Positions 2,313 through 35,045 are shown, numbered from the stretch's first letter. The stretch is 44,809 nucleotides of DNA from Synergistaceae bacterium (GCA_017450825.1 JAFSSV010000044.1:1-44809); one strand, 5' to 3'. The notes: generated by a model from the letters alone, not told the origin. Numbers and translations are program-made.

Positions 2313-2332
<20 letters not shown>
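662..2332 (-). CDS. ilvD: Dihydroxy-acid dehydratase
   Basis: 556 aa. It shows the typical IlvD N-terminus ([22 protein letters not shown]), the Fe-S cluster region ([25 protein letters not shown]) and the C-terminal [22 protein letters not shown]. Confidence 0.95.
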
Positions 2333-3346
<1,014 letters not shown>

Positions 3347-3400: not shown

Positions 3401-3665
3401 CTTCCCCACCCCTTGGCCCTCTTGTGGAAAAATAACCCCCTCGCCAGCAAGCTGGCCCTCTCCCCCTTCACAGGGGGCGCAAGGATTTTTTCAAGATACT
3501 CTATTCCCTTTACACCTTGCCTCCCCTGAAAGGGGAGGTGGTGAGCGAAGCGAACCGGAGGGGTTAATTTTTAAAAAGGGGAGGTGCCTGAACGAAGCGA
3601 AGGCGGAGGGGTTGTAGTTAGAAGAAAAAGGGGAGGGCCTGAAAGGAGGCCGGAGGGGGTTAGTT
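3401..3665. repeat. GC-rich mosaic hairpin repeat, locus A (between the pbpC 3' end and the ilvC 5' end)
   Basis: A chain of C-run/loop/G-run hairpins, for example CCCCCT-tcac-AGGGGG at 3462-3477 and CCTCCCC-tgaaa-GGGGAGG at 3520-3538. Three degenerate tandem units of form GGGGAGGTG..GAACGAAGCGAA..CGGAGGGGTT lie at about 3528-3565, 3572-3613 and 3623-3662. Modules are shared with loci B, C and D. Confidence 0.9.
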
Positions 3666-3676
3666 AAAAAAGGTCT

Positions 3677-5851
3677 TCAAAATAATTTTTGTACTTGAGT
3701 TCTTCCCGGCGTAAAAACTTTCACGTCAACCTTGACGCTTCGTCCGGTGGTATCGGCGGCGCTCACAACGTGTTCACCGTCAGGAATGTTATAAAAAAAA
3801 TTTTTGTCCGGCAATGACGAGCCTATGAAATTTCCGTCCAGCCACCACCACACGCGCTCGGCTGCTCCTTCGGTCTTGAGGGGAATTTTTCTTTCAGTGT
3901 CGAACGGTGCCGCAAAATATGACGCGCCCGGGATAGGCGACACTATGCTTAACACAGGGCCTTCACGTTTTAGTCCTTTGGGAAGATTTATATTAACTTG
4001 GCCGGATTTCATGACGTGCATATCACATGGAAAAGTTTTTGTTACGCCGGCTATAGCCCATTCGTTTTTAATGCTTGGACATAAAGCCGTAGGAGGCTTG
4101 CCGGAAAGCGAACAGACCGGACGCAAAATTAATCCTTCGGGCTTCTCGTACCATGTTGAATTAGGAGAAAGGACGCGCAAAATTTTTACTGCAACAGGAG
4201 CCGCCGCTCTTGCTCCTACGAGTCCTTCCCATGAAGTTCCGTCAGGCTTGCCCGCCCACACTACGACAGTGTAATCAGGAGTCCATGCCGCCGCCCATGC
4301 GTCACGCAATCCGTAAGAAGTCCCGGTCTTTAAAGCTATCCGCCATTGACTCCCAAGAGTCCCGCGGGCAAACAATGAAAGCTCACCGTTATATTTCAAA
4401 ATGTCACTGACAAGCCAACAAGCCTCCGGACTAGCAAGCCTTTCACCTGGAATAAAATTCAAATCGCTTGACAATAAACTCAAAGGCCTATGAAGTCCCT
4501 GGGAAGCTAACATAGTAAAAGCTTCAAGTTCTTCAAGCAAAGTTACATCACAGCCGCCAAGTATTAAACTGTCGCCGTAATAAATCGCATTCTGTGATAA
4601 ATGCTTCAGGCCTGTTTGACGCATGAGCGATAAAATTTTCCCGTTGCCTGTCGAACGCAGGACTCTAACCGCAGGAGCGTTCAGACTTTCTGAAAGAGCT
4701 ACACGGGCGCTCACAGCTCCGCGATATTTGAGATCAAAATTTCTAGGAGCGCGGCCGGAAAAAGCCATCGAAGTATCAGCTAAAAGAGTCGAAGGCGTTA
4801 ATTCTCCGTTATCAATAGCGCAAAGATACGCGAAGGGCTTTAGCGTTGAACCGGGCGATCTCAAAGCAAGACCGCAGTCAACCCAATTTTTATTAGCATA
4901 ACTGAATCGCGCATTGCCAACCCATGCTGTGAGGCTTGCGGTTTTATTGTCAACAACTCCGGCCGCAAGCGTGACATCTTCGGGAAAATTATTTAAAGAT
5001 TGTTTCAGGATTGCTTCAAGCTTAGTTTGAGCTTCAAGATTTAAGCTTGTATTAAATGAAGAGTTTATATTTTGACTCAAGACAAGCTCCGTAAAATGAT
5101 AAGCCCTTCGAGGGAGTTCAAATTTTCTTCGCGGGAGATCTTCAAGGCGGGCGCGTCTGGCTTCGTCATGAGAAAAAATTTTTTTCCGCTCCATTAAATT
5201 TATTATATTGTTGCGGCGCTTTCTTGCTGCTTCGGGGCGGGTGTCCGGTCTGTAAAGAGTTGGGCCTTTGAGCATTCCGATTAATAAACAGGCTTCGCCC
5301 GGAGAAATTTGTGACGCTGACTTCCCAAAATAAACAAGGGACGCTGCTTGAACGCCCCTGATATTTCCCCCGAAGGGAGCAAGATTTAAATAAGCCTCTA
5401 AAATTTCCTGCTTGCTTAAAATTTTTTCGAGCTTCGAGGCCATTAAGAACTCTTGAATTTTTGTCGCGATATTTCTTTTTCTGCCTCTTGGCTCTGAAAT
5501 TGACATGCGAATGACTTGGCTTGTAATTGTCGAAGCTCCGCTGACTCTTCGCAAGCGCGTTATATCTTGAAAGATTGCCCGGCCAAGCGCAAGGAAATCA
5601 ATTCCGGAATGCCTCCAGAATCGTCCGTCCTCTGCTCCGATTGCAACGAGCGGAAGCCATTTGCCCATATCGTCAAGCCTTATAGGGATTTGCCATTCAG
5701 ACGAGGGCGACAGCTTAACATGAAATAATTTTCCGTTTACGTCATAAAAAGCCTGCGAGCCGTTAATATTAATTGAAGGACTTTCAGTGAGATATAACGC
5801 GCCTTGAAAAATTCCAAAGGTTAGCAAAAATATTATTAAGATTTTTTTCAT
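3677..5851 (-). CDS. pbpC: Penicillin-binding protein 1C (bifunctional GT51 transglycosylase / transpeptidase)
   Basis: 724 aa. GT51 motifs are EDGRFWRHSGID and GASTITSQV. Transpeptidase motifs are STLKP (SxxK), SLN (SxN) and KTGTS. A C-terminal PBP1C-type beta domain and an N-terminal membrane anchor are present. Confidence 0.9.
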   Translation of the reverse strand: MKKILIIFLLTFGIFQGALYLTESPSININGSQAFYDVNGKLFHVKLSPSSEWQIPIRLDDMGKWLPLVAIGAEDGRFWRHSGIDFLALGRAIFQDITRLRRVSGASTITSQVIRMSISEPRGRKRNIATKIQEFLMASKLEKILSKQEILEAYLNLAPFGGNIRGVQAASLVYFGKSASQISPGEACLLIGMLKGPTLYRPDTRPEAARKRRNNIINLMERKKIFSHDEARRARLEDLPRRKFELPRRAYHFTELVLSQNINSSFNTSLNLEAQTKLEAILKQSLNNFPEDVTLAAGVVDNKTASLTAWVGNARFSYANKNWVDCGLALRSPGSTLKPFAYLCAIDNGELTPSTLLADTSMAFSGRAPRNFDLKYRGAVSARVALSESLNAPAVRVLRSTGNGKILSLMRQTGLKHLSQNAIYYGDSLILGGCDVTLLEELEAFTMLASQGLHRPLSLLSSDLNFIPGERLASPEACWLVSDILKYNGELSLFARGTLGSQWRIALKTGTSYGLRDAWAAAWTPDYTVVVWAGKPDGTSWEGLVGARAAAPVAVKILRVLSPNSTWYEKPEGLILRPVCSLSGKPPTALCPSIKNEWAIAGVTKTFPCDMHVMKSGQVNINLPKGLKREGPVLSIVSPIPGASYFAAPFDTERKIPLKTEGAAERVWWWLDGNFIGSSLPDKNFFYNIPDGEHVVSAADTTGRSVKVDVKVFTPGRTQVQKLF

Positions 5852-5859
5852 TTTTTTTA

Positions 5860-6100
5860 ACCAACCCCCTCCGCCTTCACTTCGTTCAGGTACCTCCCCT
5901 TTTTAAAAATTAACCCCTCCGGTTCGCTTCGCTCACCACCTCCCCTTTCAGGAGAGGCAAGAGTGTAAAGGGAATAGAGTATCTTGAAGAACTCTCTCGT
6001 CCTCCCTGAAAGGGGGGATGTCAGCTTGCTGACAGGGGGGTTGCTTTCCAAGAGGGCCAGCTTGCGGCGAGGGGGTTATATTAAGCTGGGGTGTTCGGTT
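5860..6100. repeat. GC-rich mosaic hairpin repeat, locus B; an inverted copy of locus A, immediately upstream of pbpC
   Basis: The reverse complement of 5863-5988 aligns to 3490-3613 with about 5 differences in about 125 nt. The reverse complement of 6051-6079 aligns to 3432-3460. Extra hairpins are inserted at 5989-6050. Confidence 0.9.
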
Positions 6101-6120
6101 AAGGTTGTTAATCTAGAAAG

Positions 6121-7758
6121 CTACACATTACTTTTAATAATATCCAGCGTATAGCCTGCTATATTGTTGCTGTGATCTCCAATTCGTTCGAGATTGCTAA
6201 GCAGCGAGATAAAGTTCACGCCCTTCTCCGGATCGCATTCGCCGCGGTTAAGGCGATCTATGTGAGCTTTGCGGTAAGTTCTTTCTTGATTGTCAATTTT
6301 CTTTTCAAGATCCCTGATAACCTTCCAAGCTTCGGAAGAATTTTCATCGTTAAGAGATTTCATTGAAGTATCAATAGAAAGAGTCGTCGTATCGAACATG
6401 TCTTTTAATTCGTTGATAGCGTCTTCGGATAAATAATTATCCATGAGGTCGGCGCGTTCGATTAAATTTTCTGCACGGTCGCCGATTCGTTCGAGATCTA
6501 ACGAGGCGTTCACGTAGCAGCCCAAGACAGTCGAAACTTCGTCCGAGACTCCGCGCTGCCAGATTTCAGACGAGTAGCCCGCAATAGCTTCAGTGATTTT
6601 ATTAACGCTTTGCTCGTAGTTGTCGAATTTCTTTCGGCGCTCTTCAAGCTTTGACGAGTCGTAGCTGAACAGAGTCTCACGGACTAACGCGAACATGTCA
6701 TGAATAATCCGGCCCATGTGCATTAATTCATCTTTGACCGCCGCAACGGCCGAAGCACTTGAAACAGAAATTAAATTCAAGTCCAGATACATAACTTCTT
6801 CGAGTTTATCTTCAGGGCTTAACGGGATAAGCCTTGAAATTAATTTCGCAAGCAATCCAACGAACGGGAAAAATATTACGGTGTTTAACAAATTAAAAAT
6901 CGTGTGAGCGTTGGCTATCTGTCTTCCGATATCGGGACTGCTCCATAAAATTATTTGCTTGTATAACGGGAAAGCCAGCAGGAATATCACCGTGCCTATT
7001 AAATTAAATAACACGTGAGCAGTAGCAGCTTGTTTGGCCGGACGGGTTGCGCCCATAGATACGACAATAGCAGTTAGAGTCGTTCCTATGTTGTCGCCGA
7101 GAATTATCGGGACAGCCGCGTCGAGTCCTATCAAGCCCTGTGAAGCTACAGCCATTGTTAAGCCGATTGTCGCGGCGCTTGACTGAATCAAAATCGTTAA
7201 GACCATTCCGGCTATGACTCCTGTTATAGGGTTCTGGCTCAAGATCAATAACATATCTTTATGCCGTGAGATTATGTGAGTGGCGCTTGACATTGTCTGC
7301 ATTCCAAGGAAGAGAAGACCGAGGCCGACAATGCCGCTTGAAAGGTAAGTGATTTGTTTTTTCTTTGCGAAGATTGAAAGGAATACACCAAAGAAAACTA
7401 ACGGTAAGGCGAAGGCATCAATTTTAAAGGCAATGATTTGGGCTGTAACTGTTGTTCCTATGTTTGCTCCCATTATGATCCCGATCGCTTGATTAAGCGA
7501 CAACAAGCCGGAATTCACGAAGCTTACTGTCATAACCGTTGTGCCTGTACTGGACTGAATGAGAACCGTAACGAGAATTCCTACGAAGATCCCGCGAAGA
7601 GGAGTCTTGGTGAGATCGCCGATTAATTTTCTCATTCTGTCCCCGGCTATGAACTGTAACGCCTCACTCATAAGCTTTATTCCGTACAGGAACAGGGCAA
7701 CGCCGCCGGCTATGTTAAAGAACGTCTTAATGTCCAAAATAAAATTTCCTCCGTACAA
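6121..7758 (-). CDS. Na/Pi cotransporter family protein with C-terminal PhoU-like repeats
   Basis: 545 aa. It has a polytopic N-terminal half with duplicated QSSTGTT / QSSAATI motifs typical of NptA/YjbB-type Na/Pi cotransporters. The C-terminal half carries ERIGDRAEN and ERIGDHSNN PhoU-like motifs. Confidence 0.85.
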   Translation of the reverse strand: MYGGNFILDIKTFFNIAGGVALFLYGIKLMSEALQFIAGDRMRKLIGDLTKTPLRGIFVGILVTVLIQSSTGTTVMTVSFVNSGLLSLNQAIGIIMGANIGTTVTAQIIAFKIDAFALPLVFFGVFLSIFAKKKQITYLSSGIVGLGLLFLGMQTMSSATHIISRHKDMLLILSQNPITGVIAGMVLTILIQSSAATIGLTMAVASQGLIGLDAAVPIILGDNIGTTLTAIVVSMGATRPAKQAATAHVLFNLIGTVIFLLAFPLYKQIILWSSPDIGRQIANAHTIFNLLNTVIFFPFVGLLAKLISRLIPLSPEDKLEEVMYLDLNLISVSSASAVAAVKDELMHMGRIIHDMFALVRETLFSYDSSKLEERRKKFDNYEQSVNKITEAIAGYSSEIWQRGVSDEVSTVLGCYVNASLDLERIGDRAENLIERADLMDNYLSEDAINELKDMFDTTTLSIDTSMKSLNDENSSEAWKVIRDLEKKIDNQERTYRKAHIDRLNRGECDPEKGVNFISLLSNLERIGDHSNNIAGYTLDIIKSNV

Positions 7759-7810
7759 ATTTAAAAATTTTTAAAAAGTATATCAAAGCACTTTCAGAAT
7801 TCATAATTCC

Positions 7811-7840
7811 TTCACATTGATAAGAAGATTGTTTTATAAT
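7811..7840 (+). promoter_or_regulatory. Candidate sigma70-type promoter for the RND efflux operon
   Basis: TTCACA at 7811-7816, an 18-nt spacer, then TATAAT at 7835-7840. If this promoter is used, the track start at 7817 cannot be translated, which favours the ATG at 7883. Confidence 0.4.
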
Positions 7841-7882
7841 CCTAAAAAAATTTATATTCAAAGGAGCTTATTTATATTTCAA

Positions 7883-9034
7883 ATGAAACACTTTGTTAAA
7901 ATTTTAATCGGCGCGCTGATTATTGCGGGCGTATGTTACGGCCTCAATACCTTGCGCGAAAAACACCAGCCCGAGCCAGAGCCGGAAATAATCCGCCCGG
8001 TAAGAGTCATAACGCTCACCGGCGGTTCAGACTCAATGACGCGTCACTACTTCGGAAAAATTCAGGGCGGCAAACGCGCTGATCTTTCTTTCAGAGTCTC
8101 CGGAACGTTAAACAAAATTAACGTCGAAAAAGGAGCAGCCGTTAAGACAGGCGACCTCTTAGCTACGTTAGACCCCCGCGACTTCAACACAAGAATTTCT
8201 CAAGCTTCAAGCTCGCTGTCACAAGCTCAGGCTCAATATAAAAACGCTCAAGCCGATTTCAAACGCTACGAGAATTTATACAAGCAAAAAGTTATTGCCC
8301 GGGCACAGTACGACACTTACAAGACTCAACTTGATGTCACACGAAGCGCCGTAGGAGCAGCGCAGGCGAATTTAAAATCTCTTCGGGATGCTTTAAAAGA
8401 TACAGAGCTTCGCGCTCCCTTCGATGGAATTATCGCTGATAGGACTGTAGAAAATTTTCAGGACGTTACGGCCAAGCAGACTATTTTTAGCTTGCAGGAT
8501 CTTTCAGCATTAGAGATAGTCTTCAACATTCCGGATAATGATATTCTTCTTGCTCCCTTGCCGAGAATGAAGAGCGTTAAAGATTTACAGAAAAGCCAAG
8601 AGCTTTTTAATATTGTTGCCCGTTTCGAGGCAATGCCCGATAAAACTTTCCCTTTGACAGTCAAAGAAGTTGCGACACAGGCCACAGCCGCCAATACTTA
8701 CCCGGTTACAGCGACAATGCCTCAGCTTCAAGATATTCGCGCCCTTCCAGGCATGGCCGTAACGGTTGAAGTTTATATGGAGGGTGGAGAAAAGGACGAA
8801 GGTTCTCCAAAATATTTAGTCCCTGCTACTTCAATCTTGAACGAGAAAAATAAAAATTTCGTCTGGAGATTTAACAGCGGCAAAGCTGAAAAAATTTCTG
8901 TCGAAGTCGGAGGCATTAAAGACAGCGGCATGTTAGAAATTCAAAGCCCCGTCCTTCATAACGGAGATAAAGTCATTACGGCCGGCGTATATTTTTTGCG
9001 TGAAGGTCAGAAAGTCCGCTTGCCCGAGGAGTGA
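7883..9034 (+). CDS. Efflux RND transporter periplasmic adaptor subunit (HlyD/MFP family)
   Basis: The track ORF starts at 7817. The internal ATG at 7883 gives a typical adaptor signal-anchor (MKHFVKILIGALIIAGVCYG) and is preceded by AAGGAG at 7861-7866. The protein has lipoyl-like, coiled-coil (AQAQYKNAQADFKRYENLYKQ) and beta-barrel segments. It lies directly upstream of the RND pump. Confidence 0.85.
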   Translation: MKHFVKILIGALIIAGVCYGLNTLREKHQPEPEPEIIRPVRVITLTGGSDSMTRHYFGKIQGGKRADLSFRVSGTLNKINVEKGAAVKTGDLLATLDPRDFNTRISQASSSLSQAQAQYKNAQADFKRYENLYKQKVIARAQYDTYKTQLDVTRSAVGAAQANLKSLRDALKDTELRAPFDGIIADRTVENFQDVTAKQTIFSLQDLSALEIVFNIPDNDILLAPLPRMKSVKDLQKSQELFNIVARFEAMPDKTFPLTVKEVATQATAANTYPVTATMPQLQDIRALPGMAVTVEVYMEGGEKDEGSPKYLVPATSILNEKNKNFVWRFNSGKAEKISVEVGGIKDSGMLEIQSPVLHNGDKVITAGVYFLREGQKVRLPEE

Positions 9035-9040
9035 TTTTAA

Positions 9041-12000
9041 ATGGACATTGCAAGAGCAAGCATAAAACGCTACGTCGTAATTTTATTTATCTGTCTTCTT
9101 ACTTTGATTGGCGGCGTTATGGCGTATACAGAGATCGGCAAGCTTGAAGACCCTTCGTTCACAATCAAGACCGCCGTTATTAGTGCCGTGTACCCGGGAG
9201 CAAGCGCCGAAGAAGTTGAGCAGGAAGTCACGAGCCGGATTGAAGACGCTGTTCAGGCTATGGGTGAGATCAAGCACATTCGTTCGCGTTCGACTCCGGG
9301 GCTTGCTATTATTTACGTTGATATTAAGGACGAGTACACGAGCAAAGAACTTCCGCAGGTCTGGGACAAGCTAAGACAGAAGGTCAACGATGCAAGCGTA
9401 TATATGCCGACCGGCGCGACTGTCTTAATTAATAACGACTTCGGGGAAGTTTACGGGCAATATTATTCACTCGTGGGCGACGGCTACACTATGAAAGAGC
9501 TGTACGATTATGCAGACTTCCTTAAAAAAAATCTCGTGCTTGTTGACGAAGTAGCAAGCGTAAAAATTCTTGGCGAACAGTCTGAAGTAGTTTACATAGA
9601 ATTTTCACCTTCCAGAATGTCATCGTTAGGCCTGTCGCCTTTAGCAGTGCTTGGAATTTTGACGCAGCAAAATACTTTAACGAGTGTCGGCGATATAACT
9701 TTAGGCGATAGATATATCAGAGTATCTCCTACGGGCGGCATTCTTTCTGTTGAAGATATTGGCGACTTGGTGATCGGCAACGCAGGAGGAAATTTAACCC
9801 GCCTGAAAGATGTTGCGACAGTCCGAAGAGCTTATGCCGAACCTCAAAGCTTCAAGCTGAAATTTAATAACCGTCCCGCGCTTGCTATAGGAATTTCGAC
9901 AGTCGAAGGCGGCAACGTCGTCAACATGGGCCGGGCTGTCGCGAAGAGACTCAAAGAGCTTGAAGAGTTCCGCCCGGTAGGAATCGAACTCAATGAAATT
10001 TATATGCAGTCTGAACAGGTCGTGAAGTCCGTCAATGATTTCTTGATTAATTTAATTGAAAGCCTTGCGATAGTCGTAGGAGTGTTATTAATTTTCATGG
10101 GCCTTCGGTCGGGATTGATAATCGGTCTTGTGTTGTTAATCACAGTCGCGGGGACTTTCATAATCATGAACTTCAACGGAATAACGCTCCAGATTGTTTC
10201 GCTTGCGGCTTTGATTATTGCGCTTGGTTCTCTTGTTGATAATGGAATTGTCGTAGCTGAAGGAATGTTAGTAGGAACTGAACGGGGCAAGAGTCTTGAA
10301 GACGCAGCCTCCGAGTCTGTTGAAGGTTCAAAGTGGGCAATGCTGGGAGGAACTTTTATAGCTGTCTTGGCTTTCGCTCCGATTGGGCTAGCGAACGTTC
10401 AGGCCGGAGAATTTTTGCGTAGCTTGTTTCAGGTTGTCGGGATCTCAATGGCTTTGAGCTGGATTGCGGCGTTAGTAGCAGCGCCGGCGCTTGGAAAAAT
10501 ATTTTTGAAGCCTTCAAAGCAAGAGGGCGATCCTTACGACAGTTTTTTATTCAGGACGTACAGAAAGATTCTTGAGGCTTGCCTGCGTCACAGAGCCTTG
10601 ACGGTCTTAACAACTATAGCAATGTTTGCGGGATCGCTTTATATTTTCTCAACAATGCCGACATCGTTCTTCCCGGACGCGCAGACTGTATATTTCAACG
10701 TTGACTTATGGAGTCCCGAAGGAACTTCAATCGAAGCACAGGAGCGGGCGACTCAAAAACTTGTTGACTATATAACCTCCGAAGGCAAAGTCAAAAATGT
10801 TTCGCAGTTTATAGGCGGAGGCGGCTTGCGATTCATGCTGACCTATTCGCCTCCGGAAAATAACACGGCGTTTTCTCAGTTAATGGTAGAAATGGAAGAC
10901 GCTAAGGACACAAGAGAATTACTCTTGAAGACTCAGGCTTACATTGACGAACGAATGCCGGAGCTTGACGGATATTGCCGACTCTTCGCAAGAGGAAGCG
11001 GAATGAGCGAGAAAATAGGCGTGAGATTTTACGGCCAAGACCCGGAAATTTTAAGGGCGCTTGCTAAGAAAGCCTGTGAGATTTTGCAGGACGACCCGGC
11101 GAGTCAATTTGTCCGTGACAGTTGGCGTGAAAGAGTCGAAGTTATTGAGCCAAAAATCTTAAAAGATCAAATGCAGAGCCTTGGCCTGTCGCGTCCGATA
11201 ATAAATCAGTCAATTTTAGCGGCGACTACCGGCGCAACTATCGGAGCATTTCGTGACGGCGATAAGTCACTTTCAATCAAATTAGCTTTCACTCCCGAAG
11301 AGCGCAATAAAATTGAACTGTTAAGTTCTATGCCTGTATGGGCAATGGCGGCAAACAAAGCTGTACCCCTTGGCACTGTCTTTTCGAGTTTAGAGACGAA
11401 GTTTGAGGACAATATAATAATGCGCCGCGACCGAAGCCGATATATAACGGCAATGAGCGAAGTAAAGTTCGGGCGGAACGCCGATGCAATGTTAGCAAGA
11501 GTCACGCCTAAGATCGAAGCTCTTGAACTTCCCTTGGGTTATTCGCTTGAATGGGGAGGCGAGCATGAGCTTTCAGACGAGTCACTTGAAGGAATGGCCG
11601 TATCATTTCCTTCGGCGGTCTTAATAATGTTTATTATTATGGTCTTCCTGTTCAATGGATTTAGACAGACGATAATAATTTTTATTTCGCTGCCTTTGAT
11701 TTTGATTGGAGTCGTAGGGGGCTTATGGCTTATGGGAATGGATGTGAGCTTCTTGGCTATCGTAGGACTTTTGAGTCTTGTCGGAATGCTTGCGAAAAAT
11801 TCTATTGTCTTGCTTGACCAAGTTAGCGCGGACTTTGCCGCGGGCCGTGACAAGTACGAAGCAATAGTCGAGGACGGAGTAGGACGTTTGCGCCCTGTCG
11901 CTATGTCTGCTCTTACAACTGGATTAGGAATGATACCGTTAATATGGGATGTAATGTTCGGGCCAATGGCCGTTACTATCATGGCCGGCTTGACGGTCAG

Positions 12001-12067
12001 CACGATTTTGACTCTGTTAGTTATTCCGGTTTTGACGGCGATAGCTTATAACGTTGAGAAGAAATAA
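9041..12067 (+). CDS. Efflux RND transporter permease subunit (AcrB/AcrD/AcrF family)
   Basis: 1008 aa with a 12-TM architecture and two large periplasmic loops. AcrB-like segments include SLAIVVGVLLIFMGLRSG and LVDNGIVVAEG. It starts 7 nt after the adaptor gene. Confidence 0.9.
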   Translation: MDIARASIKRYVVILFICLLTLIGGVMAYTEIGKLEDPSFTIKTAVISAVYPGASAEEVEQEVTSRIEDAVQAMGEIKHIRSRSTPGLAIIYVDIKDEYTSKELPQVWDKLRQKVNDASVYMPTGATVLINNDFGEVYGQYYSLVGDGYTMKELYDYADFLKKNLVLVDEVASVKILGEQSEVVYIEFSPSRMSSLGLSPLAVLGILTQQNTLTSVGDITLGDRYIRVSPTGGILSVEDIGDLVIGNAGGNLTRLKDVATVRRAYAEPQSFKLKFNNRPALAIGISTVEGGNVVNMGRAVAKRLKELEEFRPVGIELNEIYMQSEQVVKSVNDFLINLIESLAIVVGVLLIFMGLRSGLIIGLVLLITVAGTFIIMNFNGITLQIVSLAALIIALGSLVDNGIVVAEGMLVGTERGKSLEDAASESVEGSKWAMLGGTFIAVLAFAPIGLANVQAGEFLRSLFQVVGISMALSWIAALVAAPALGKIFLKPSKQEGDPYDSFLFRTYRKILEACLRHRALTVLTTIAMFAGSLYIFSTMPTSFFPDAQTVYFNVDLWSPEGTSIEAQERATQKLVDYITSEGKVKNVSQFIGGGGLRFMLTYSPPENNTAFSQLMVEMEDAKDTRELLLKTQAYIDERMPELDGYCRLFARGSGMSEKIGVRFYGQDPEILRALAKKACEILQDDPASQFVRDSWRERVEVIEPKILKDQMQSLGLSRPIINQSILAATTGATIGAFRDGDKSLSIKLAFTPEERNKIELLSSMPVWAMAANKAVPLGTVFSSLETKFEDNIIMRRDRSRYITAMSEVKFGRNADAMLARVTPKIEALELPLGYSLEWGGEHELSDESLEGMAVSFPSAVLIMFIIMVFLFNGFRQTIIIFISLPLILIGVVGGLWLMGMDVSFLAIVGLLSLVGMLAKNSIVLLDQVSADFAAGRDKYEAIVEDGVGRLRPVAMSALTTGLGMIPLIWDVMFGPMAVTIMAGLTVSTILTLLVIPVLTAIAYNVEKK

Positions 12068-12094
12068 ATAATATTCTCGCCTCCTTCTTTTTTT

Positions 12095-12276
12095 AATAAC
12101 CCTCACCACCGCAAGCGTTTTTTGAGTAAGGAATCCCCCCGCCGCAAGCGGCCCTCCCCCCTTAAAAGGGGGGCTCTAGGATATTACTAACAAAGCCTCC
12201 CCTTGGGGAGGTGGTGAACGAAGTGAACCGGAGGGGGTTGCTTTCCAACGAGCCATGAAGTGGCGAGGGGGTTATT
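12095..12276. repeat. GC-rich mosaic hairpin repeat, locus C (between convergent genes), with MITE-like imperfect terminal inverted repeats
   Basis: The ends are AATAACCCTCACCACC (12095-12110) and GTGGCGAGGGGGTTATT (12260-12276, reverse complement AATAACCCCCTCGCCAC). Hairpins include GCCGC-aa-GCGGC and CCCCCCT-taaa-AGGGGGG. The core module CCTCCCCTTGGGGAGGTGGTGAACGAAGTGAACCGGAGGGGGTT is shared with loci A, B and D. Confidence 0.85.
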
Positions 12277-12300
12277 TTTTAAGAAAAAGGAATTGCTTGT

Positions 12301-12918
12301 TTAATAAAACCCTATGACAGCAGTCACGGATTTTATTGGGCTCATCATCATTGAGCGGGTCACCGAGAGGCCGATTTGTTTAGCCGCATTAAGAAGGCTA
12401 ATGATCTCCTCGGTGACTTCCATTTTTAAATCGCCGTAGCCCGGACTGAAACGCGACGTTAAAAATTCTCCGGCTTTGAGGCCCGGGACGATTTGATTTT
12501 TAATATATTCGTTTAAGAAGTCATCGACTTGAACAGACGCGGCCGAGTCCAGTGCGAGTCCTTCGAGCATGTTTTTCTGTTGAGCTAAAGAAATTTGCCT
12601 GTCAACTTCGTGCCCGAGTGTCGCGGCTATTAAGATACATTTATCAGCCCGGGCCGTTAAGCGCGCAATATCTTTGCTGAAGATACTAGCGCCTTCGATT
12701 TCAATTCCGCCGTCAAAATGAATCAGCTTGAACTCCCTCCAGATACAACGGGGAGTCATAAAGCCCTCAAGCCTTTGAAAAGCGTTGTCTATAATTTGAA
12801 TAAGCTCGTGATCGTTTTCAGCGTCACGAGCTTTCATGTATCGCAAGGCGTTAATTATCAGCCTTTTCTCTGCGGGCATATCTCTTAGTGTAAAGCACTG
12901 AACGAATCCCCGCGTCAA
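12301..12918 (-). CDS. Stand-alone vitamin-B12-dependent methionine synthase activation-domain protein
   Basis: 205 aa. The C-terminal RFSPGYGDL...IGLSVTRSMMMSPIKSVTAVIGF matches the MetH AdoMet-binding (reactivation) domain signature. It lies downstream of metF, as in Thermotoga and Clostridia. The track start overlaps metF by 68 nt, so an internal Met at 12879 or 12840 may be the true start. Confidence 0.75.
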   Translation of the reverse strand: MTRGFVQCFTLRDMPAEKRLIINALRYMKARDAENDHELIQIIDNAFQRLEGFMTPRCIWREFKLIHFDGGIEIEGASIFSKDIARLTARADKCILIAATLGHEVDRQISLAQQKNMLEGLALDSAASVQVDDFLNEYIKNQIVPGLKAGEFLTSRFSPGYGDLKMEVTEEIISLLNAAKQIGLSVTRSMMMSPIKSVTAVIGFY

Positions 12919-13744
12919 TACGCCGGACAGTATCAGCTTGATTCATTGTGTAAAGGTGAACGCCGTCAACGTCACGCGCTAATAAATCTATTAACTGTTC
13001 AGTAGCGTAAGCAATACCGGCTTCTTTAATCGCGGCTTGATTATGTCCGTAAGCATTAACGAAGCGGCGGACTCTTTCCGGGACTGAAGCTCCGCACATC
13101 TCAACGACCTTTGAAATCTGTGACGCGGCTGTTATCGGCATGACCCCGGCTATAATAGGTTGAGTTATGCCGATTGCGCGAGCCTCTTCACGCCATTGAC
13201 AAAAAATATCGTTGTCAAAAAATAATTGCGAGATAAGAGCCTTGACTCCAAGATCGCATTTTTCTTTTAAGTGCAGCAAGTCTTCTTTTATTGACTTGGC
13301 CTCGGGGTGTTTCTCCGGGTAACAGGCCGCGAATACGTCGAAGTCATTTCCGTATTCTTTTTTAATGAATGCGATTAATTCTGAAGCGTAATGAAAATCT
13401 CCAAGATCGGACTCGTCTTTGAGATCGCCGCGCAAAGCTAAAATATTTTTTACTCCGTTAGCTTTTAATTGATTCAGAATGCTTCTAATATTTTCGCGCG
13501 TTGTTCCTACGCAGGTAAGATGAGCTACGCCGCAGACGTTGTATTTATTTTGAATTCCTGAAGTAATTTCTACGGTGTTGTCACGGCTTGAACCTCCAGC
13601 TCCGTAAGTCACGCTGATTAAATCCGGCGTGAAGCTCACTAAACTATCAATTACTGCATAAGTTCCAGCGGTGCTGGCGTTGCCCTTGGGCGGGAAGATT
13701 TCAAACGTGTAACTGGGCGCGGGCCTTTCAAAAAATCCTTCCAT
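12851..13744 (-). CDS. metF: 5,10-methylenetetrahydrofolate reductase
   Basis: 297 aa. Typical MetF features are present: the N-terminal FEIFPPKG, SVTYGAGGS, HLTC and LALRGD. Confidence 0.9.
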   Translation of the reverse strand: MEGFFERPAPSYTFEIFPPKGNASTAGTYAVIDSLVSFTPDLISVTYGAGGSSRDNTVEITSGIQNKYNVCGVAHLTCVGTTRENIRSILNQLKANGVKNILALRGDLKDESDLGDFHYASELIAFIKKEYGNDFDVFAACYPEKHPEAKSIKEDLLHLKEKCDLGVKALISQLFFDNDIFCQWREEARAIGITQPIIAGVMPITAASQISKVVEMCGASVPERVRRFVNAYGHNQAAIKEAGIAYATEQLIDLLARDVDGVHLYTMNQADTVRRIDAGIRSVLYTKRYARREKADN

Positions 13745-13774
13745 TAATAAATATCTCCTTTCAGTTTTGACTCT

Positions 13775-14659
13775 TCATTGACTCAAGAGCCATTCTCTAA
13801 GGGCCGTTATCTTATAAACATAATCGAACGAACTCATGTGTTCTGAAAAATTTTTTGAGCTGTCGATCCCTTCGGGCAAGGTTGAGCCGGCTTTGAACGT
13901 TATGAAGTTTGCGTACTGTGACGGGAAGATAAACACGCGGGGATCTTTAGCGTCGATATTTTTATAAGCTACGTAAGGGACTCCGGCCTCGTCAAAAAAT
14001 TTTATAACTTCGCTTTGACCTTTTGAAGCTTTCTCATCTCCAGCGGAAGCCGCGTAAATAAATTTCACGGTCTTCAATCCTTCAAGCTCTTTGATATTCC
14101 ACTGTCCCGACACGAACAAACAAGCCGTAAATAAATCCGGATACTTTGAAGCAAGTAATAAAAGAGTCATGCAGCCCATTGACTGTCCAGTCGCGTAAAC
14201 TCTTTTGGGATTAAGCTTATAATTTTTTATTGAGTGCCGAACGAATCGCGCTGTAAGTTCTACATAGTCCGTAGTCTTAAAACCATTGTGATCGTCAAGA
14301 ATAATTTCCGGGTAAGTCGGAACGATAACAACTGCGTCATGTTCAGTCCAGACTAAAGCTCCGTAACCTTGAGTGACAGAAAACTCCGTGGCCTTGCCTG
14401 CCGCGCTTGCGTCAGCGATAAAAAATACAACGGGAAAATTTTTTTCGGGCGAATAATTTTCAGGCAAGTAAATATCATAAGAAAGATCCAAGCCTGTCAC
14501 TTCGTCATGAAAATTTTTGACAGTGAATTTTTTTGCTGAAGTGCTGATTAAATTTTGCAGAGTCTCATCGCCTGATTTATCCGGGTGAAGCATTGCTGCT
14601 TGTGTCGAAAATGCCAAGGCCAGAACTAACGCAAGAGCAAGAAAAATTTTTAACTTCAT
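13775..14659 (-). CDS. Secreted alpha/beta-hydrolase (esterase/lipase-like)
   Basis: 294 aa. It has the signal peptide MKLKIFLALALVLALAFSTQA and a nucleophile elbow GQSMG. Its start overlaps the speD stop by 4 nt. Confidence 0.7.
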   Translation of the reverse strand: MKLKIFLALALVLALAFSTQAAMLHPDKSGDETLQNLISTSAKKFTVKNFHDEVTGLDLSYDIYLPENYSPEKNFPVVFFIADASAAGKATEFSVTQGYGALVWTEHDAVVIVPTYPEIILDDHNGFKTTDYVELTARFVRHSIKNYKLNPKRVYATGQSMGCMTLLLLASKYPDLFTACLFVSGQWNIKELEGLKTVKFIYAASAGDEKASKGQSEVIKFFDEAGVPYVAYKNIDAKDPRVFIFPSQYANFITFKAGSTLPEGIDSSKNFSEHMSSFDYVYKITALREWLLSQ

Positions 14660-15069
14660 TCTTTCTTCCCGTCGACTCGATTTTCTTCCCAGGTTATGAA
14701 CGAGTGATAGAAGACTTTATCATTATCATCAAGTCCGCGGGTTATTTCAGTTATGTGAATGTGCTTTGCCTTGACCTGTTCAAGAACGTAATCGACAGCC
14801 AGCATAGGCTCGGTATGAGCGCCGCAGGTATAAATATCCAGCGCCATATAATTTACTTCGGGCCAAGTGTGAACGGATAAATGCGACTCACTTATAACTA
14901 CAATGCCGCTGACTCCGTTGGGCGGAAATTTATTGAAGGACACGGACCAAACTTGAGCGTGAGCTCTTTTGGCAGCTTCAACAAGAATATCTTGAAGCTT
15001 AGGAACATTAGTAATTGTATCATCGCAGCCTGAAACCTCTACGATATAGTGAACGCCTTTCGGGGACAA
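14656..15069 (-). CDS. speD: S-adenosylmethionine decarboxylase proenzyme (small prokaryotic class)
   Basis: 137 aa. The self-processing site context VVISESHLSVHTWPE and DIYTCG are characteristic. The TTG start at 15069 is preceded by AGGAGGG 9 nt upstream. Confidence 0.9.
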   Translation of the reverse strand: MSPKGVHYIVEVSGCDDTITNVPKLQDILVEAAKRAHAQVWSVSFNKFPPNGVSGIVVISESHLSVHTWPEVNYMALDIYTCGAHTEPMLAVDYVLEQVKAKHIHITEITRGLDDNDKVFYHSFITWEENRVDGKKE

Positions 15070-15144
15070 AATGAATCACCCTCCTGAAATATGAAATTGT
15101 GAGATGAAAATTTTTTTTAGAAATTATATCTTATCATAAAAAAT

Positions 15145-15375
15145 AAGCCCCCCTTGGGGAGGTTTTAGTAATATTTTGAAATAACCTCCTCGCCAGCAAG
15201 CGGTTTTTGAGTAAGGAATCCCCCCGCCGCAAGCGGCCCTCCCCCCTTAAAAGGGGGGCTTATAGTAATGCTAATCAAGCCTCCCCTTGGGGAGGTGGTG
15301 AGCGAAGCGAACCGGAGGGGGTGAATTTTAAAGAAAGGGGAAGTGGCGCAACGAAACTAAGCGGCGGAGGGTATT
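15145..15375. repeat. GC-rich mosaic hairpin repeat, locus D (between the gmd 3' end and the speD 5' end)
   Basis: A 57-nt block at 15204-15260 is identical to 12119-12175. The block at 15277-15322 matches 12193-12238 at 44 of 46 positions. There is an extra hairpin AAGCCCCCCTTGGGGAGG at 15145-15162 and a second degenerate unit at about 15331-15373. Confidence 0.9.
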
Positions 15376-16497: not shown

Positions 16498-17862
16498 TTA
16501 ATTCTCCTTTTTTAGATTTTCTTTTAGAATCTCAGCTATTTCATTATCAAAATTCATTAAGGCGTGAGATAAGGCGGTCATGCCTTTATGGTCTCTTATA
16601 TTGAGATCGGCTCCGTTATTAATTAAGAACTTTACTATTTGAAGCTGTGTTTCCCGTCGTGAGAACGCGTAGAAAATTGAAAGGGCCAGCCACAAGCGCA
16701 CGCCTTTGGCCCTGATTGCTCCTGTTCGTATAAGAGCAGAGATTGAGAAGTCGGGTATTCTGTCTTGGCCGTTGATTGTCCACATTAAAGCCGTATAACC
16801 TTTTTCGTCTTGAATATTAGGATCTGCTCCGAATTCAAGAAGACTTTTAATGACTCCGTCCTCGCTGTCGCCGTCAATCGCGGCCAACATCAAGGGCGTT
16901 CTACCGTTGTTATCTTTTAAATTCGGGTTGCCTCCGTTAGACAGGAGCAGCCTTAAAATTTTGTTGCTTGTCAAGATTGAGAACATTATCGAAGACTTTC
17001 CGCTATAGTCAAGAAAATTAGGATCAGCTCCGGCGTTTAAAAGTATCTTGACTATATCGGGCCTGTCCATGGAGATTGCAAGATTTAAAACGTTGCTGAA
17101 GGCTCCTTCGTCAAAAAAAATTTTTTGATCTATATCTGCTCCTCTTTTTATTAAAAGCTTAATCATTTTAAGAATCTCCGGGCTGGAATTTGAGTGGAGT
17201 ATCGCAGCAGAAAGCGGCGTTTGATTTGCAAGGCATGGTTTATTTATATCTGCTCCGGCTTTGAGCAGCAAGTCCATTAACTTTAAATTATTTTCTTTTA
17301 TTGCTAAGACCATCGCCCTATCATAATCTGCTCCGGCGGCTATGAGCGCTTTGACAATACCCGGAGAAATTTTCAGCAGGCCGTCGTTGAACAACATGGA
17401 CAAATAAGTCAAAGCCGTTTCCCCTTCTTCTCCTTCCTTTGATACTATTGCGTTGACATCTGCGCCAAGCTTTATTAAAAATCTAACCATTTTTAAATTA
17501 TTAATTGTCGCAGCGTAGAAAAGAGGAGTCCGGCCTCTTTCGTCTTTGGTGTTTATTCCTATTCTTTTGGTAAGGTATTTGACCATAATTTTATCGTCAG
17601 CGTTCAGCGAGATCATATACGCAGGGAAAGGTTCAGCGCCCCTATCCAGCAAAATTTTCACCGCCTCAAGATTACCGCCCGCTACGGCCGCAATCAACGG
17701 CGTATAGTCAGCGCCGTACATATTGACTGCTTCTTCAAGGTCGTAGCCGTTATCTATAAACCATTCGATCTCTTCACTGGAGTGAGTGAAGCAGCTCCGG
17801 ACAAATTTTTCCTGCGGGGTCATTTCTTCTTCGTCTTCGTAATATTCGTCGTCGTAATACAT
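16498..17862 (-). CDS. Ankyrin-repeat protein
   Basis: 454 aa with at least 9 recognisable ANK units (for example GRTPLFYAA..NNLKMVRFLIKLGADVN and GRTPLMLAA...LLEFGADPN). The N-terminus MYYDDEYYEDEEE is acidic and there is no signal peptide. Confidence 0.85.
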   Translation of the reverse strand: MYYDDEYYEDEEEMTPQEKFVRSCFTHSSEEIEWFIDNGYDLEEAVNMYGADYTPLIAAVAGGNLEAVKILLDRGAEPFPAYMISLNADDKIMVKYLTKRIGINTKDERGRTPLFYAATINNLKMVRFLIKLGADVNAIVSKEGEEGETALTYLSMLFNDGLLKISPGIVKALIAAGADYDRAMVLAIKENNLKLMDLLLKAGADINKPCLANQTPLSAAILHSNSSPEILKMIKLLIKRGADIDQKIFFDEGAFSNVLNLAISMDRPDIVKILLNAGADPNFLDYSGKSSIMFSILTSNKILRLLLSNGGNPNLKDNNGRTPLMLAAIDGDSEDGVIKSLLEFGADPNIQDEKGYTALMWTINGQDRIPDFSISALIRTGAIRAKGVRLWLALSIFYAFSRRETQLQIVKFLINNGADLNIRDHKGMTALSHALMNFDNEIAEILKENLKKEN

Positions 17863-33683: not shown

Positions 33684-35045
33684 TTATTCTGTTACAGCTG
33701 GAAGGTCGATAGATTTTACAGCCTCTTCGATTTTTTCTACGGCTGCTTTAATTTCTTCGGGTTCTTTGACCTCTGGAGTCGGCTCTGCACTCACAGGCTC
33801 TTCGGTCTTGACTTCTTCAGGCTCTTTGACTTCAGGTGTCGGCTCTGCGCTCACAGGCTCTTCAGCTTTGACCTCTTCAGATTCTTTGACTTCAGGAGTC
33901 GGTTCGGCGCTCACAGGCTCCTCGGCTTTAACTTCCTCTTTAACTTCCGGCTTAACCTCTTCGGATTTAACTTCGGGTTCGGCGCTTACTTCTGTAATAT
34001 CTTCGATTACAAACTCCGGCGCTGTATCTTTGCTTTCAGGTTCCGGGCTTGCGAATAATTCTTTGTCATTAATAACTACATTGGCTTTGGCAAGCAAAGA
34101 CTCTTGATAGTTTGAGAGTCTTGTCCGCTCTTCCTGTTGAGTTAAGACTGTACGAATATCGCTGCTTACTTCGTCATAAGGGCTTACGCTTGCGTCAACA
34201 TGACTGGTTTTCATTGCTACGCCGAAATCAGAACTTGAAAGCGTGAATACTTCGCTCGGCTTTTCAAGATCAAGCGAAGCCAATGCGCTGAATGTTCCCG
34301 TAGCGAATGCGTTTGCAGGCAAGAACACTGGCTCTCTTGTAATATCAACTGAAGCAGAAAGATCGCTTGAGGCTATTATGTCCCAGCTTTCTCCGTTGAC
34401 GAGTCGCGTTCTGAAATTTTCAGCGTCTGCACTTGTATCGAAATTGGCCAAATGAATCATAAAGCCTTCGGGTTTACTGTAGACGATATTTTTCATCGTG
34501 TCATAAAATTCTAAGGCTTTATCTTCGCTGATTTCGATTTCTCCTACGGCCATATTCATGAGCTGATCTATAGCTATTTGACGGGCAAGGCTCTTTTTAT
34601 AATCGTCTGGTCTGATTCCTGACTGTTCAAGGGCTTGATAAAATGTTTCGCGTGTCGGGAAATATGTATCGGCATAAGCTTTCATAGCCTGCTCGGCTTG
34701 AGCGTCAGAAATTTTTATGCCGTTAGCTTCGACTTCTTTATCAAGCTGTGACTCAAGGATTGCGTTATCTAAAACTGTTTTGTAAATTGCGGGCATATCA
34801 AGCGACTCAATATTTCTTGAGCTGTAATTGCTAAGATAGCTTCTAAGTCTTTGCTCAAGCTCCGAACGCATTAACGAGCGGCCGTTGATCTGCGCGACTT
34901 CGTAATCGCTCATAGTGCCGTCAGCGTTGCGCGTTGGAGTGCGCCTCGTGCCTGTTCCTTCGTACATTAAGAATGTAGACAGCAGGAAGGCAACGACGAT
35001 AATAGCCATAACCCATTTCATTTGCTTTCGCAGAAAATCCATCAT
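33684..35045 (-). CDS. SurA-N/PpiD-like membrane-anchored chaperone with an acidic tandem-repeat C-terminal tail
   Basis: 453 aa. An N-terminal TM anchor (MKWVMAIIVVAFLLSTFLMY) is followed by a SurA_N-like helical region. No clear parvulin signature was recognised by eye. The C-terminus carries three repeats of EEPVSAEPTPEVKE(S/P)EE(V/I)K. Confidence 0.65.
   Translation of the reverse strand: MMDFLRKQMKWVMAIIVVAFLLSTFLMYEGTGTRRTPTRNADGTMSDYEVAQINGRSLMRSELEQRLRSYLSNYSSRNIESLDMPAIYKTVLDNAILESQLDKEVEANGIKISDAQAEQAMKAYADTYFPTRETFYQALEQSGIRPDDYKKSLARQIAIDQLMNMAVGEIEISEDKALEFYDTMKNIVYSKPEGFMIHLANFDTSADAENFRTRLVNGESWDIIASSDLSASVDITREPVFLPANAFATGTFSALASLDLEKPSEVFTLSSSDFGVAMKTSHVDASVSPYDEVSSDIRTVLTQQEERTRLSNYQESLLAKANVVINDKELFASPEPESKDTAPEFVIEDITEVSAEPEVKSEEVKPEVKEEVKAEEPVSAEPTPEVKESEEVKAEEPVSAEPTPEVKEPEEVKTEEPVSAEPTPEVKEPEEIKAAVEKIEEAVKSIDLPAVTE
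33760..33939. repeat. 60-bp tandem repeat x3 inside the PpiD-like CDS
   Basis: The units are 33760-33819, 33820-33879 and 33880-33939, about 85-90 percent identical by eye. They are in frame and encode the 20-aa acidic Pro/Glu repeat. Confidence 0.9.

Follow-up and report, generated by a model that had tools for sequence, protein, structure and literature searches.

Dispersed intergenic repeats of a Synergistaceae bacterium laid out as candidate purine-motif intrastrand triplexes around a DNA mini-hairpin

What kind of repeat occupies four intergenic gaps of a chromosome fragment of a Synergistaceae bacterium (GCA_017450825.1 JAFSSV010000044.1:1-44809), and in which nucleic acid form would it act? 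The whole stretch of 44,809 nt is called the window here. The four gaps, referred to as arrays A to D (Table 1), are built from one common set of modules, for which shuffled sequence, the standard against which copies were counted, gives a chance expectation of 0, and their GC (guanine plus cytosine) content of 54-56% stands against 44.5% for the whole window. We consider it fairly probable that the arrays are non-autonomous dispersed intergenic repeats whose working form is single-stranded G-rich DNA. The 32-nt core GGGGAGGTGGTGAGCGAAGCGAACCGGAGGGG is matched once in each array, at 3532-3563(+), 5914-5945(-), 12205-12236(+, 2 mismatches) and 15289-15320(+), with 0 matches in 100 shuffles, and the pattern GGGGAGG-N8-30-GGAGGGG occurs 7 times in the window versus 0 expected. 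An earlier note on this DNA had delimited the four regions, placed the core in all of them and described a module Y of 57 nt, identical at 12119-12175 and 15204-15260; these modules and all of their coordinates hold. Regions A and B form an inverted pair (96 nt at 97%) on either side of the gene for a PBP1C-type penicillin-binding protein, and regions C and D form a direct pair (87 nt at 90%) located 3,085 nt apart.

On the G-rich strand, the unit consists of a pyrimidine arm Y (CCTCCCC), a loop of 2-8 nt, a purine tract R (GGGGAGG), a central GC hairpin of 14-20 nt, usually of the GCGAAGC type (for example, GGT-GA-GCGAAGC-GA-ACC), and a further purine tract H (GGAGGGG), which is the mirror image of R. 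One plan is common to the core, module Y, the G6 unit (6000-6040) and the X unit (3436-3479), and, as read from the sequence, its order is the class II purine-motif intrastrand-triplex layout known from BoxC of E. coli, rediscovered as PIT elements and studied as TMECO (PMC4666352). The stable hairpins reported in the earlier note are present, but the defining third tract, the mirror purine tract after the second small hairpin, had been overlooked, as had three orphan units at 3578-3611, 3630-3658 and 5866-5899(-). Likewise, copies of its module X do exist at 6035-6079 and 12233-12274, with an inverted part at 3432-3460 and degenerate copies at 12094-12116 and 15179-15201, but this is a composite and not one module, consisting of the last tract of the preceding unit, the linker TTGCTTTCCAA and a purine-tract/hairpin/purine-tract unit ending in TTAT.

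A rule-based search for a perfect Y:R stem of 7 with a triad-compatible tract (antiparallel G·G-C, A·A-T, T·A-T) no more than 40 nt further on found 5 distinct units with 7-8 perfect triads in the window versus 0 in 30 Markov shuffles; allowing one mismatch gave 8 units, that is, one inverted pair (- then +) at each of the 4 loci. The second loop, between R and H, measures 14-20 nt in the window and up to ~35 nt at other loci. In the recurrent composite of this lineage, ~135-170 nt long, an AT-rich spacer, which is closed by CGCAAGG/CCTTGC, separates an X-type unit from a core unit. The composite has the termini ATAACCCCCTC and GGAGGGGTTAAT, which are inverted and lie in A/T-rich flanks, and extra R-hairpin-H units sometimes follow. 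In the fetched contig L021 (3151-3365), one core unit has an insertion of ~22 nt, GGGGAGGTGCCGGTTGCGAAGCACGCCGAAGGCTACAAAGTGAGGTCGGAGGGG, in its central hairpin, so large inserts are tolerated in the second loop; the segment GCACGCCGAAGGCT of this insertion is also present in an array of contig L001.

The third tract could be followed in a metagenome search whose pattern fixed only the purine tracts and the GA-N-CGAAG-N-GA hairpin motif, and not the Y arm, and which returned 136 unique units on 88 contigs of 32-73% GC. A Y arm was found in 129/136 of these units and was perfect in 104/136. The base after GGAGGGG, a position fixed by no search, follows the eighth base of R: where the latter is G, the former is G in 57/58 units, and where the latter is A, the H base is T (21) or A (1) in 22/22 units. 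This rule is kept in high-GC and low-GC contigs, as read by eye without formal stratification, and the mirror relation is also kept in other tract types (GGGAGAAGG with GGATGAGGG, GGGAGAGGG with GGGTGAGGG, AAGGGGGG with GGGGGGAT). Bystanders, defined as informative Y-loop-R hairpins without the searched motif on the fetched loci (n=222), are followed by a perfect mirror tract within 45 nt downstream in 55 cases representing 15 distinct R/H types, against 19 for a direct copy, 5 for the upstream position and a mean of 3.3 (maximum 8) in shuffles. The hairpin polarity is Y-loop-R in 179 cases versus R-loop-Y in 7, and the wobbles in the Y:R stem are T·G in 16 cases and C·A in none.

The central hairpin, compared across 34 variants, has 93.6% of its cells paired versus 74.2% in shuffles and 41 double-sided changes versus 9.6, and its covariation score is 0.567 versus 0.175, with 0/500 shuffles as high and slid controls at no more than 0.082. 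Its wobbles, among 324 cells, are G·T in 39 and A·C in 1. Since G·T greatly exceeds A·C here and T·G greatly exceeds C·A in the Y:R stem, it is the G-rich strand that folds and is under structural selection. The commonest central hairpin is exactly GCGAAGC, with ACGAAGT and CCGAAGG as variants, and the central loops are mostly C-GNA-G (GAA 13, GCA 7, GGA 2 and GTA 1 of 54 bystanders). Note that tracts of the commonest type contain GGAGG, which resembles a Shine-Dalgarno sequence, and CCTCC, which resembles its complement, both in the window (3520-3611) and in the metagenome units; this content is probably incidental because other tract types have no such strings.

The earlier note took the repeats for a dispersed family, and they are indeed found outside the window. 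The window encodes a DXS protein that shares 99% identity with metagenome proteins; its closest named relatives, proteins of Synergistaceae metagenome-assembled genomes (MAGs), are 74-80% identical to it. An exact look-up of the PBP1C protein gave no record. The contigs related to the window derive from gut or rumen-type metagenome assemblies. Contig L021, from the same sample as L004 (a contig of the ~98.6% strain), carries arrays upstream of hisIE and at its opposite end, a goat-rumen Synergistaceae MAG (L020) carries the same composite, and the 88 contigs described above extend the range. A tally of contig ranges against array positions places ten ends of twelve strain contigs within arrays, as is expected because multi-copy repeats break assemblies. 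A 64-aa open reading frame (ORF) in array B was rightly called a translation artefact of the repeat: it has 4 weak relatives among 5.8 billion proteins, the one that is named being a hypothetical protein of a Synergistaceae MAG and the one whose locus was fetched (L021) lying in a repeat array.

The exact core is also present in seven alphaproteobacterial MAG contigs of 62-66% GC (Rhizobiaceae, Hyphomonas, Hyphomonadaceae, Terricaulis and others), and plasmids of Deinococcus sp. AJ005 and Sphingomonas were found by BLAST to carry the unit. On plasmid p380k of Deinococcus sp. AJ005 (L115 1395-1550), the unit reads CCTCCC/GGGGAGG/TGGCGCGTAGCGCC/GGAGGGG, ends in TTAAC and lies in a divergent intergenic region; an apparent degenerate inverted partner upstream of it was judged by eye. 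This unit may match the Deinococcus "small noncoding repeats" of ~1999-2001, for which no usable sequences were found to compare. At the same time, three other Synergistaceae species (DXS 71-79% identical) have no unit in 66 kb, and the distribution of the family is therefore patchy; no clean empty insertion site was found, as these three relatives have neither the family nor synteny at the relevant junctions. When 1,918 ORFs were clustered all against all, no recurrent neighbour gene or transposase emerged, at most 6 of ~97 loci sharing a family. A phage origin was rejected: no viral contig has the exact core, and two have the broader pattern. Units are very densely packed in two contigs: L118 (IMG/VR, 11 kb), with 7 units, whose viral label may be a misclassification, and the 13.4-kb metagenome contig L066, with 15 units.

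The arrays are unstable between close strains. Contigs 99.8% identical to the window have identical arrays, and in contigs 98.6% identical to it, arrays C and D, the two that these contigs reach, are both rearranged. Array D of the 98.6% strain is a gap of 151 nt with one unit, whereas the corresponding gap of the window spans 328 nt; L012 has a third variant of this array. The extra 131 nt of the window are bounded by direct copies, 18-19 nt long, of the CCTCCCCAAGGGGRGGCTT hairpin, and this repeated hairpin suggests deletion or slippage as the origin of the polymorphism. Array C is much longer in the other strain, where it runs to the contig end; the same X half and linker precede a different unit there, which places the junctions at shared C/G tracts. 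Such a pattern is consistent with slippage or with template switching at the tracts, and, by analogy, the instability matches that reported for TMECO loci (PMC4666352).

The same observations have to be weighed under other explanations. In an ordinary hairpin repeat, similar to repetitive extragenic palindromic sequences (REPs), bacterial interspersed mosaic elements (BIMEs) or miniature inverted-repeat transposable elements (MITEs), the mirror tract would be mere baggage or would pair with the inverted partner at the base of a long hairpin or cruciform. Mosaic arrays with units in both orientations and pair termini that resemble short terminal inverted repeats would suit such an element; moreover, the predicted fold of the 143-nt unit pair of array A joins AACCCCCTC to GGAGGGGTT, and 80/124 strict units have a non-overlapping inverted partner within 200 nt. 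However, the remaining 35% of the strict units are singletons, and the geometry of the pairs is balanced, with H outermost in 40 and innermost in 40; for both reasons, partner pairing does not account for the H tract. Nor does it predict the mirror relation between R and H or the rule at the eighth position (79/80), and the excess of mirror over direct tracts among the bystanders, as well as the nearly constant hairpin polarity, also argue against a plain hairpin repeat, which we regard as unlikely. The mosaic, BIME-like organisation described in the earlier note, with non-coding units in both orientations and no transposase nearby, is supported. An element acting as RNA, such as a terminator, a 3'-end stabiliser or a regulatory structure whose G·U wobbles come from RNA folding, would be suited by the position of the arrays at gene ends, by an excess of G·T over A·C that is also a signature of structured RNAs, by tandem G·A pairs, which are common in RNA, and by one hairpin with a T-run (15162-15148). 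Against it, the orientation to the flanking genes is inconsistent: arrays A and B are oppositely oriented although both sit between minus-strand genes, and elsewhere no bias is seen in a crude count (13 same-sense, 9 antisense, 7 convergent and 6 divergent) of the 35 units usable with an ORF heuristic that is weak in high-GC contigs and that placed 34 units "inside" stop-free stretches. A review of mini-hairpin DNA (PMC13037366) describes motifs of this kind, GNA triloops with a closing C-G pair, as having an extraordinary stability in DNA that is largely lost in RNA; purine-motif triplexes are stated not to form in RNA (Holder et al., PMC4666352), and PIT/TMECO elements showed neither promoter nor terminator activity (PMC4666352). 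In the window, the layout of an intrinsic terminator is clear only at 15162-15148(-) and weak at 12211-12196(-); terminator-like sites across the regions number 31 versus 21.4 ± 5.3 in shuffles. Rfam gave 0 matches at the gathering score for the window and 18 other loci (137 kb), and just chance below-threshold matches, miRNA-like or whalefall-1, at permissive E-values. So, a role as terminator, insulator or ribosome-binding site, which the earlier note had considered, finds no support in one or two T-run hairpins and in units that are sense at one locus and antisense at the next. We favour a single-stranded DNA fold over an RNA element, which is quite unlikely in our estimate, because of the GNA loops, the lack of purine triplexes in RNA, the absence of an orientation bias, the scarcity of terminators and the lack of an Rfam match.

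Two further explanations were weighed. As a single-strand DNA signal used by the host, the unit would serve, for example, in priming or primosome assembly, or it would be bound by a nucleoid or topology protein, in the way that IHF and gyrase bind BIMEs. Such a use would agree with the occurrence of very similar sequences across phyla, and GCGAAGC and CCGAAGG mini-hairpins are present at the priming sites of phage G4 and ssiA, where they resist binding by SSB (PMC13037366). Nevertheless, the patchy distribution, with no unit in the 66 kb of three related species, and the rapid gain, loss and rearrangement between strains are better suited to a selfish or neutral element, no protein partner has been identified, and we hold this explanation to be very unlikely. 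The least probable in our view, and highly unlikely, is a hybrid of G-quadruplex and hairpin, in which the flanking G runs (4, 2, 2 and 4) would form a two-tetrad quadruplex with the hairpin as a long loop. The high content of G runs and the existence of orphan units without a Y arm speak for it, and G-rich triplex motifs can in principle form quadruplexes (Holder et al., PMC4666352). However, the perfect Y arm of 104/136 units would compete with such a structure, the A/T positions of H track the A positions of R, which a quadruplex does not require, and quadruplex formation was excluded by nuclear magnetic resonance for TMECO (PMC4666352); by inspection, each unit has only two runs of at least 3 G and not the four of the G-quadruplex motif.

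With single-stranded G-rich DNA as the preferred working form, the following course of events can be proposed. When the strand becomes unpaired, as lagging-strand template, in a repair gap or as a displaced strand, Y and R would zip into a hairpin of 7-8 bp, and the mini-hairpin, typically GA-GCGAAGC-GA with a GNA triloop, would make a tight, stable turn. H would thereby be laid antiparallel along R in the major groove, forming G·G-C, A·A-T and T·A-T triads and so a class II purine-motif intrastrand triplex. Because the units usually sit as inverted pairs, each strand would carry one foldable G-rich unit. Such folds may cause stalling, slippage and template switching at shared G/C tracts; these events would then lead to the shuffling of modules, to deletions between direct hairpin copies and to arrays that differ in near-identical strains, and new loci might be reached via a trans-acting enzyme or by repair-mediated copying. 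Triplex formation in vivo, the triplex as the cause of instability and the means of spread are what we infer from the pattern as a whole.

Several points weigh against this proposal. The evidence for a triplex given here comes from sequence; for TMECO, the triplex was undetected by in vivo dimethyl sulphate (DMS) footprinting, and the duplex wins in vitro when the complementary strand is present (PMC4666352). Nearest-neighbour folding (ViennaRNA), which yields a strong Y:R hairpin (z about -3.5) and in which H finds no Watson-Crick partner within its own unit, is blind to triplexes, and in inverted pairs H can pair with H' of the partner. Of the 7 R-hairpin-H units in the window, three have no Y arm and so cannot by themselves form a triplex. 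The information in the mirror relation rests on few A/T positions, the tracts being mostly G; the events counted are non-independent, as the copies are related by descent; and the loci used for the statistics were fetched with patterns from the same family, so that even the bystanders are less biased but still biased. The small and crude orientation count belongs with these points.

The features of the four arrays are given in Table 1. The genes around the arrays are housekeeping genes, namely ilvC, the PBP1C gene, and those for an Na/Pi cotransporter, an RND efflux pair, a metH-activation-like protein, MTHFR, an esterase, speD and GDP-mannose dehydratase; the remainder of the window also carries housekeeping genes. 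No transposase is encoded anywhere in the window, and no additional copies of the repeat were found in its 15.4-44.8 kb part.

Table 1 Arrays, units and linkers of the repeat family in the window (positions as counted from its first letter)
Feature	Position	Strand	Description
Array A	3401..3670		PBP1C gene stop (3677-5851, -) to ilvC start (-); inverted unit pair and two tandem orphan units; 55% GC
X-type unit	3436..3479	-	CGCCCCC / TGTGAA / GGGGGAG(AGG) / GCCAGCTTGCTGGC / GAGGGGG; pyrimidine arm with one mismatch; outer terminus ATAACCCCCTC
Spacer of array A unit pair	3476..3519		AT-rich; closing stem CGCAAGG...CCTTGC
Core unit, array A	3520..3564	+	CCTCCCCT / GAA / AGGGGAGG / TGGTGAGCGAAGCGAACC / GGAGGGGT; 8 perfect triads
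Orphan unit (purine tract, hairpin, mirror tract; without pyrimidine arm)	3578..3611	+	GGGGAGG-TGCCTGAACGAAGCGAAGGC-GGAGGGG
Orphan unit	3630..3659	+	GGGGAGG-GCCTGAAAGGAGGC-CGGAGGGGG
Array B	5853..6100		Na/Pi-cotransporter stop (6121, -) to PBP1C start (5851, -); inverted copy of array A
Orphan unit, array B	5866..5899	-	GGGGAGG-TACCTGAACGAAGTGAAGGC-GGAGGGG; inner pair A-T versus A·C in the array A copy
Core unit, array B	5914..5957	-	Pyrimidine arm CCTCTCC, one Watson-Crick mismatch
G6-type unit, array B	6000..6040	+	TCCTCCC / TGAAA / GGGGGGA / TGTCAGCTTGCTGAC / AGGGGGG
Linker TTGCTTTCCAA and terminal purine-tract/hairpin/purine-tract unit	6041..6079	+	GAGGG-CCAGCTTGCGG-CGAGGGGG-TTAT; 3' part of module X
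Array C	12089..12290		Between convergent acrB-like gene (ends 12067, +) and metH-activation-like gene (ends 12301, -)
Module-Y unit, array C	12133..12174	-	(G)CCCCCCTT / TT / AAGGGGGG / AGGGCCGCTTGCGGC / GGGGGGAT; 8 perfect triads
Core unit, array C	12196..12237	+	Central hairpin ACGAAGT, a compensatory change from GCGAAGC
Linker and terminal X half-unit, array C	12238..12274	+	CGAGCCATGAAGTGGCGAGGGGGTTA
Array D	15145..15375		GDP-mannose dehydratase stop (15398, -) to speD start (15069, -); polymorphic between strains
Lone pyrimidine/purine hairpin, array D	15148..15162	-	CCTCCCCAAGGGGGG then CTTATTTTTT; only strongly terminator-like site; one copy of the 18-19-nt direct repeat
Module-Y unit, array D	15218..15259	-	Identical to the array C module-Y unit
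Core unit, array D	15280..15321	+	Core matched at 15289-15320
Degenerate orphan unit, array D	15334..15370	+	GGGGAAGTGGCGCAACGAAACTAAGCGGCGGAGG

Three features of the neighbouring genes may be recorded. In ilvC (2313-3332, -), the first ~64 codons are out of frame owing to a 1-nt deletion at ~3203 (GATGTAATCG to GATGT-ATCG), as seen against contig L110, which is 99.8% identical; this represents either an assembly error or a strain-specific pseudogene. Three tandem copies of 60 nt (33753-33935, 84% matches) lie within a SurA-like chaperone gene (33684-35045, -) and code for a 20-aa repeat. Additionally, between gmd and ftsJ lies a gene (16498-17862, -) for an ankyrin-repeat protein of 454 aa, which is conserved in the related Synergistaceae contigs L113 and L114.

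Tract covariation, wobbles confined largely to one strand and a linker that is stable as DNA but not as RNA together constitute evidence from sequence evolution that selection sees a folded single strand. More tentatively, and with more doubt than confidence, the family might be regarded as an undescribed cross-phylum class of repeats structured as single-stranded DNA (Synergistota, Alphaproteobacteria and Deinococcota) that fuses a purine-motif triplex with the GCGAAGC mini-hairpin, both of which rank among the most stable DNA folds known, in which case the covariation of the third strand could be the first comparative evidence of triplexes formed and selected in living bacteria. If true, this would imply that some machinery recognises the folded strand or copies it, or that the host makes use of it, for instance in priming. 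The question of whether non-B DNA such as triplexes forms in bacterial cells, for which the TMECO footprint was negative, becomes testable through sequence evolution. Intrastrand-triplex repeats are probably more widespread than reported because earlier searches limited the loops to no more than 6 or 10 nt. In practice, the arrays break metagenome assemblies, create strain-specific intergenic variation beside housekeeping genes and can be mis-called as small ORFs.

Among known systems, the family shares with REP, BIME and REPIN elements the character of short structured intergenic repeats in mosaic clusters with linkers, alternating orientation and common inverted doublets, and these elements, too, are thought to act as single-stranded DNA hairpins. 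It differs from them in that none of the window units, all of which were inspected, has a GTAG or CGTC tag, and REPs have no third mirror tract; furthermore, REPs are mobilised by the REP-associated tyrosine transposase (RAYT), and no RAYT or other transposase gene is present in the window and none is recurrent near ~100 loci. The CGTC REPs (Di Nocera et al. 2013, PMC3733652) are similar in being abundant in Alphaproteobacteria, present in several phyla and devoid of a dedicated transposase, and in forming mostly head-to-head dimers. They have stems of 8-9 bp starting with A/T pairs, loops of 4-5 nt and CCA tails, and they include dRS3 of Neisseria and RPE of Rickettsia (PMC3733652). Identity with them was rejected, and we judge them to be a different family, whose description in the text mentions no G/C tracts (PMC3733652); some alphaproteobacterial central hairpins (TGTC...GACA) may overlap with theirs. 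As to MITEs, inverted pair termini are seen, no target-site duplication was found, and neither the window nor the fetched loci contain a related autonomous insertion sequence that shares these ends. Most units have as their central hairpin exactly the mini-hairpin d(GCGAAGC) or a variant of it with a GNA triloop (Hirao; PMC13037366), but such hairpins are described as isolated motifs at single-strand origins of phages and plasmids and at promoters, and not as linkers of triplexes (PMC13037366). No description of this repeat family was found in the openly searchable literature, the scope of which leaves aside subscription-only papers, including Hoyne 2000; literature searches with sequence strings gave chance primer matches only, and the RepRanger paper mentions no Synergistetes and no triplexes.

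The earlier note had recognised no named element in these repeats. Rfam contains no known family that matches the window or the 18 other loci, but the repeats do have described relatives, the BoxC/PIT/TMECO elements of E. coli (Bachellier, 1990s; Hoyne and Maher 2000; Holder et al. 2015, PMC4666352). TMECO forms a triplex in vitro with a melting temperature of 70-82 °C, is intergenic without strand bias, often occurs as inverted pairs, is patchy among relatives and is linked to strain-level variability, and PIT elements were reported to block polymerase in vitro (PMC4666352). Both groups have the Y-loop-R-loop-H order on the G-rich strand with G·G-C and A/T·A-T triads, and both are intergenic, without strand bias, arranged as inverted pairs of two unit types, patchy, strain-variable and free of a linked transposase. 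The differences concern the hosts, which are E. coli and other Proteobacteria in one case and Synergistaceae, Alphaproteobacteria and Deinococcus in the other, the larger mosaic arrays with orphan units in the window family, and the dimensions of the unit: its tracts are 7-8 nt long (GGGGAGG/GGAGGGG and others) versus the 9-nt GGGNGAGGG of TMECO, and its second loop is a covarying GNA-triloop hairpin of 14-20 nt versus 3 nt (TTA or CCG). The TMECO pattern CCCTCNCCC-N3-6-GGGNGAGGG-N3-GGGNGAGGG has 0 occurrences in the window and 0 in 114 fetched loci. The ITxF search definition (Holder 2015, PMC4666352) calls for a stem of 6-15 nt with at most 1 mismatch and for both loops to be 1-6 nt, against 0-10 nt in Hoyne 2000; the 7-8 triads of the window units lie within the stem range and their second loop of 14-20 nt lies outside the loop limit. 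So, it is because the second loop is a covarying mini-hairpin that the family falls outside the loop limits of both published searches. The kind of repeat is already known, as a relative of BoxC/PIT/TMECO, and its hairpin-looped form seems undescribed; at the same time, intermediate forms such as L015, in which TMECO-like tracts are combined with a hairpin loop, argue for one broad superfamily.

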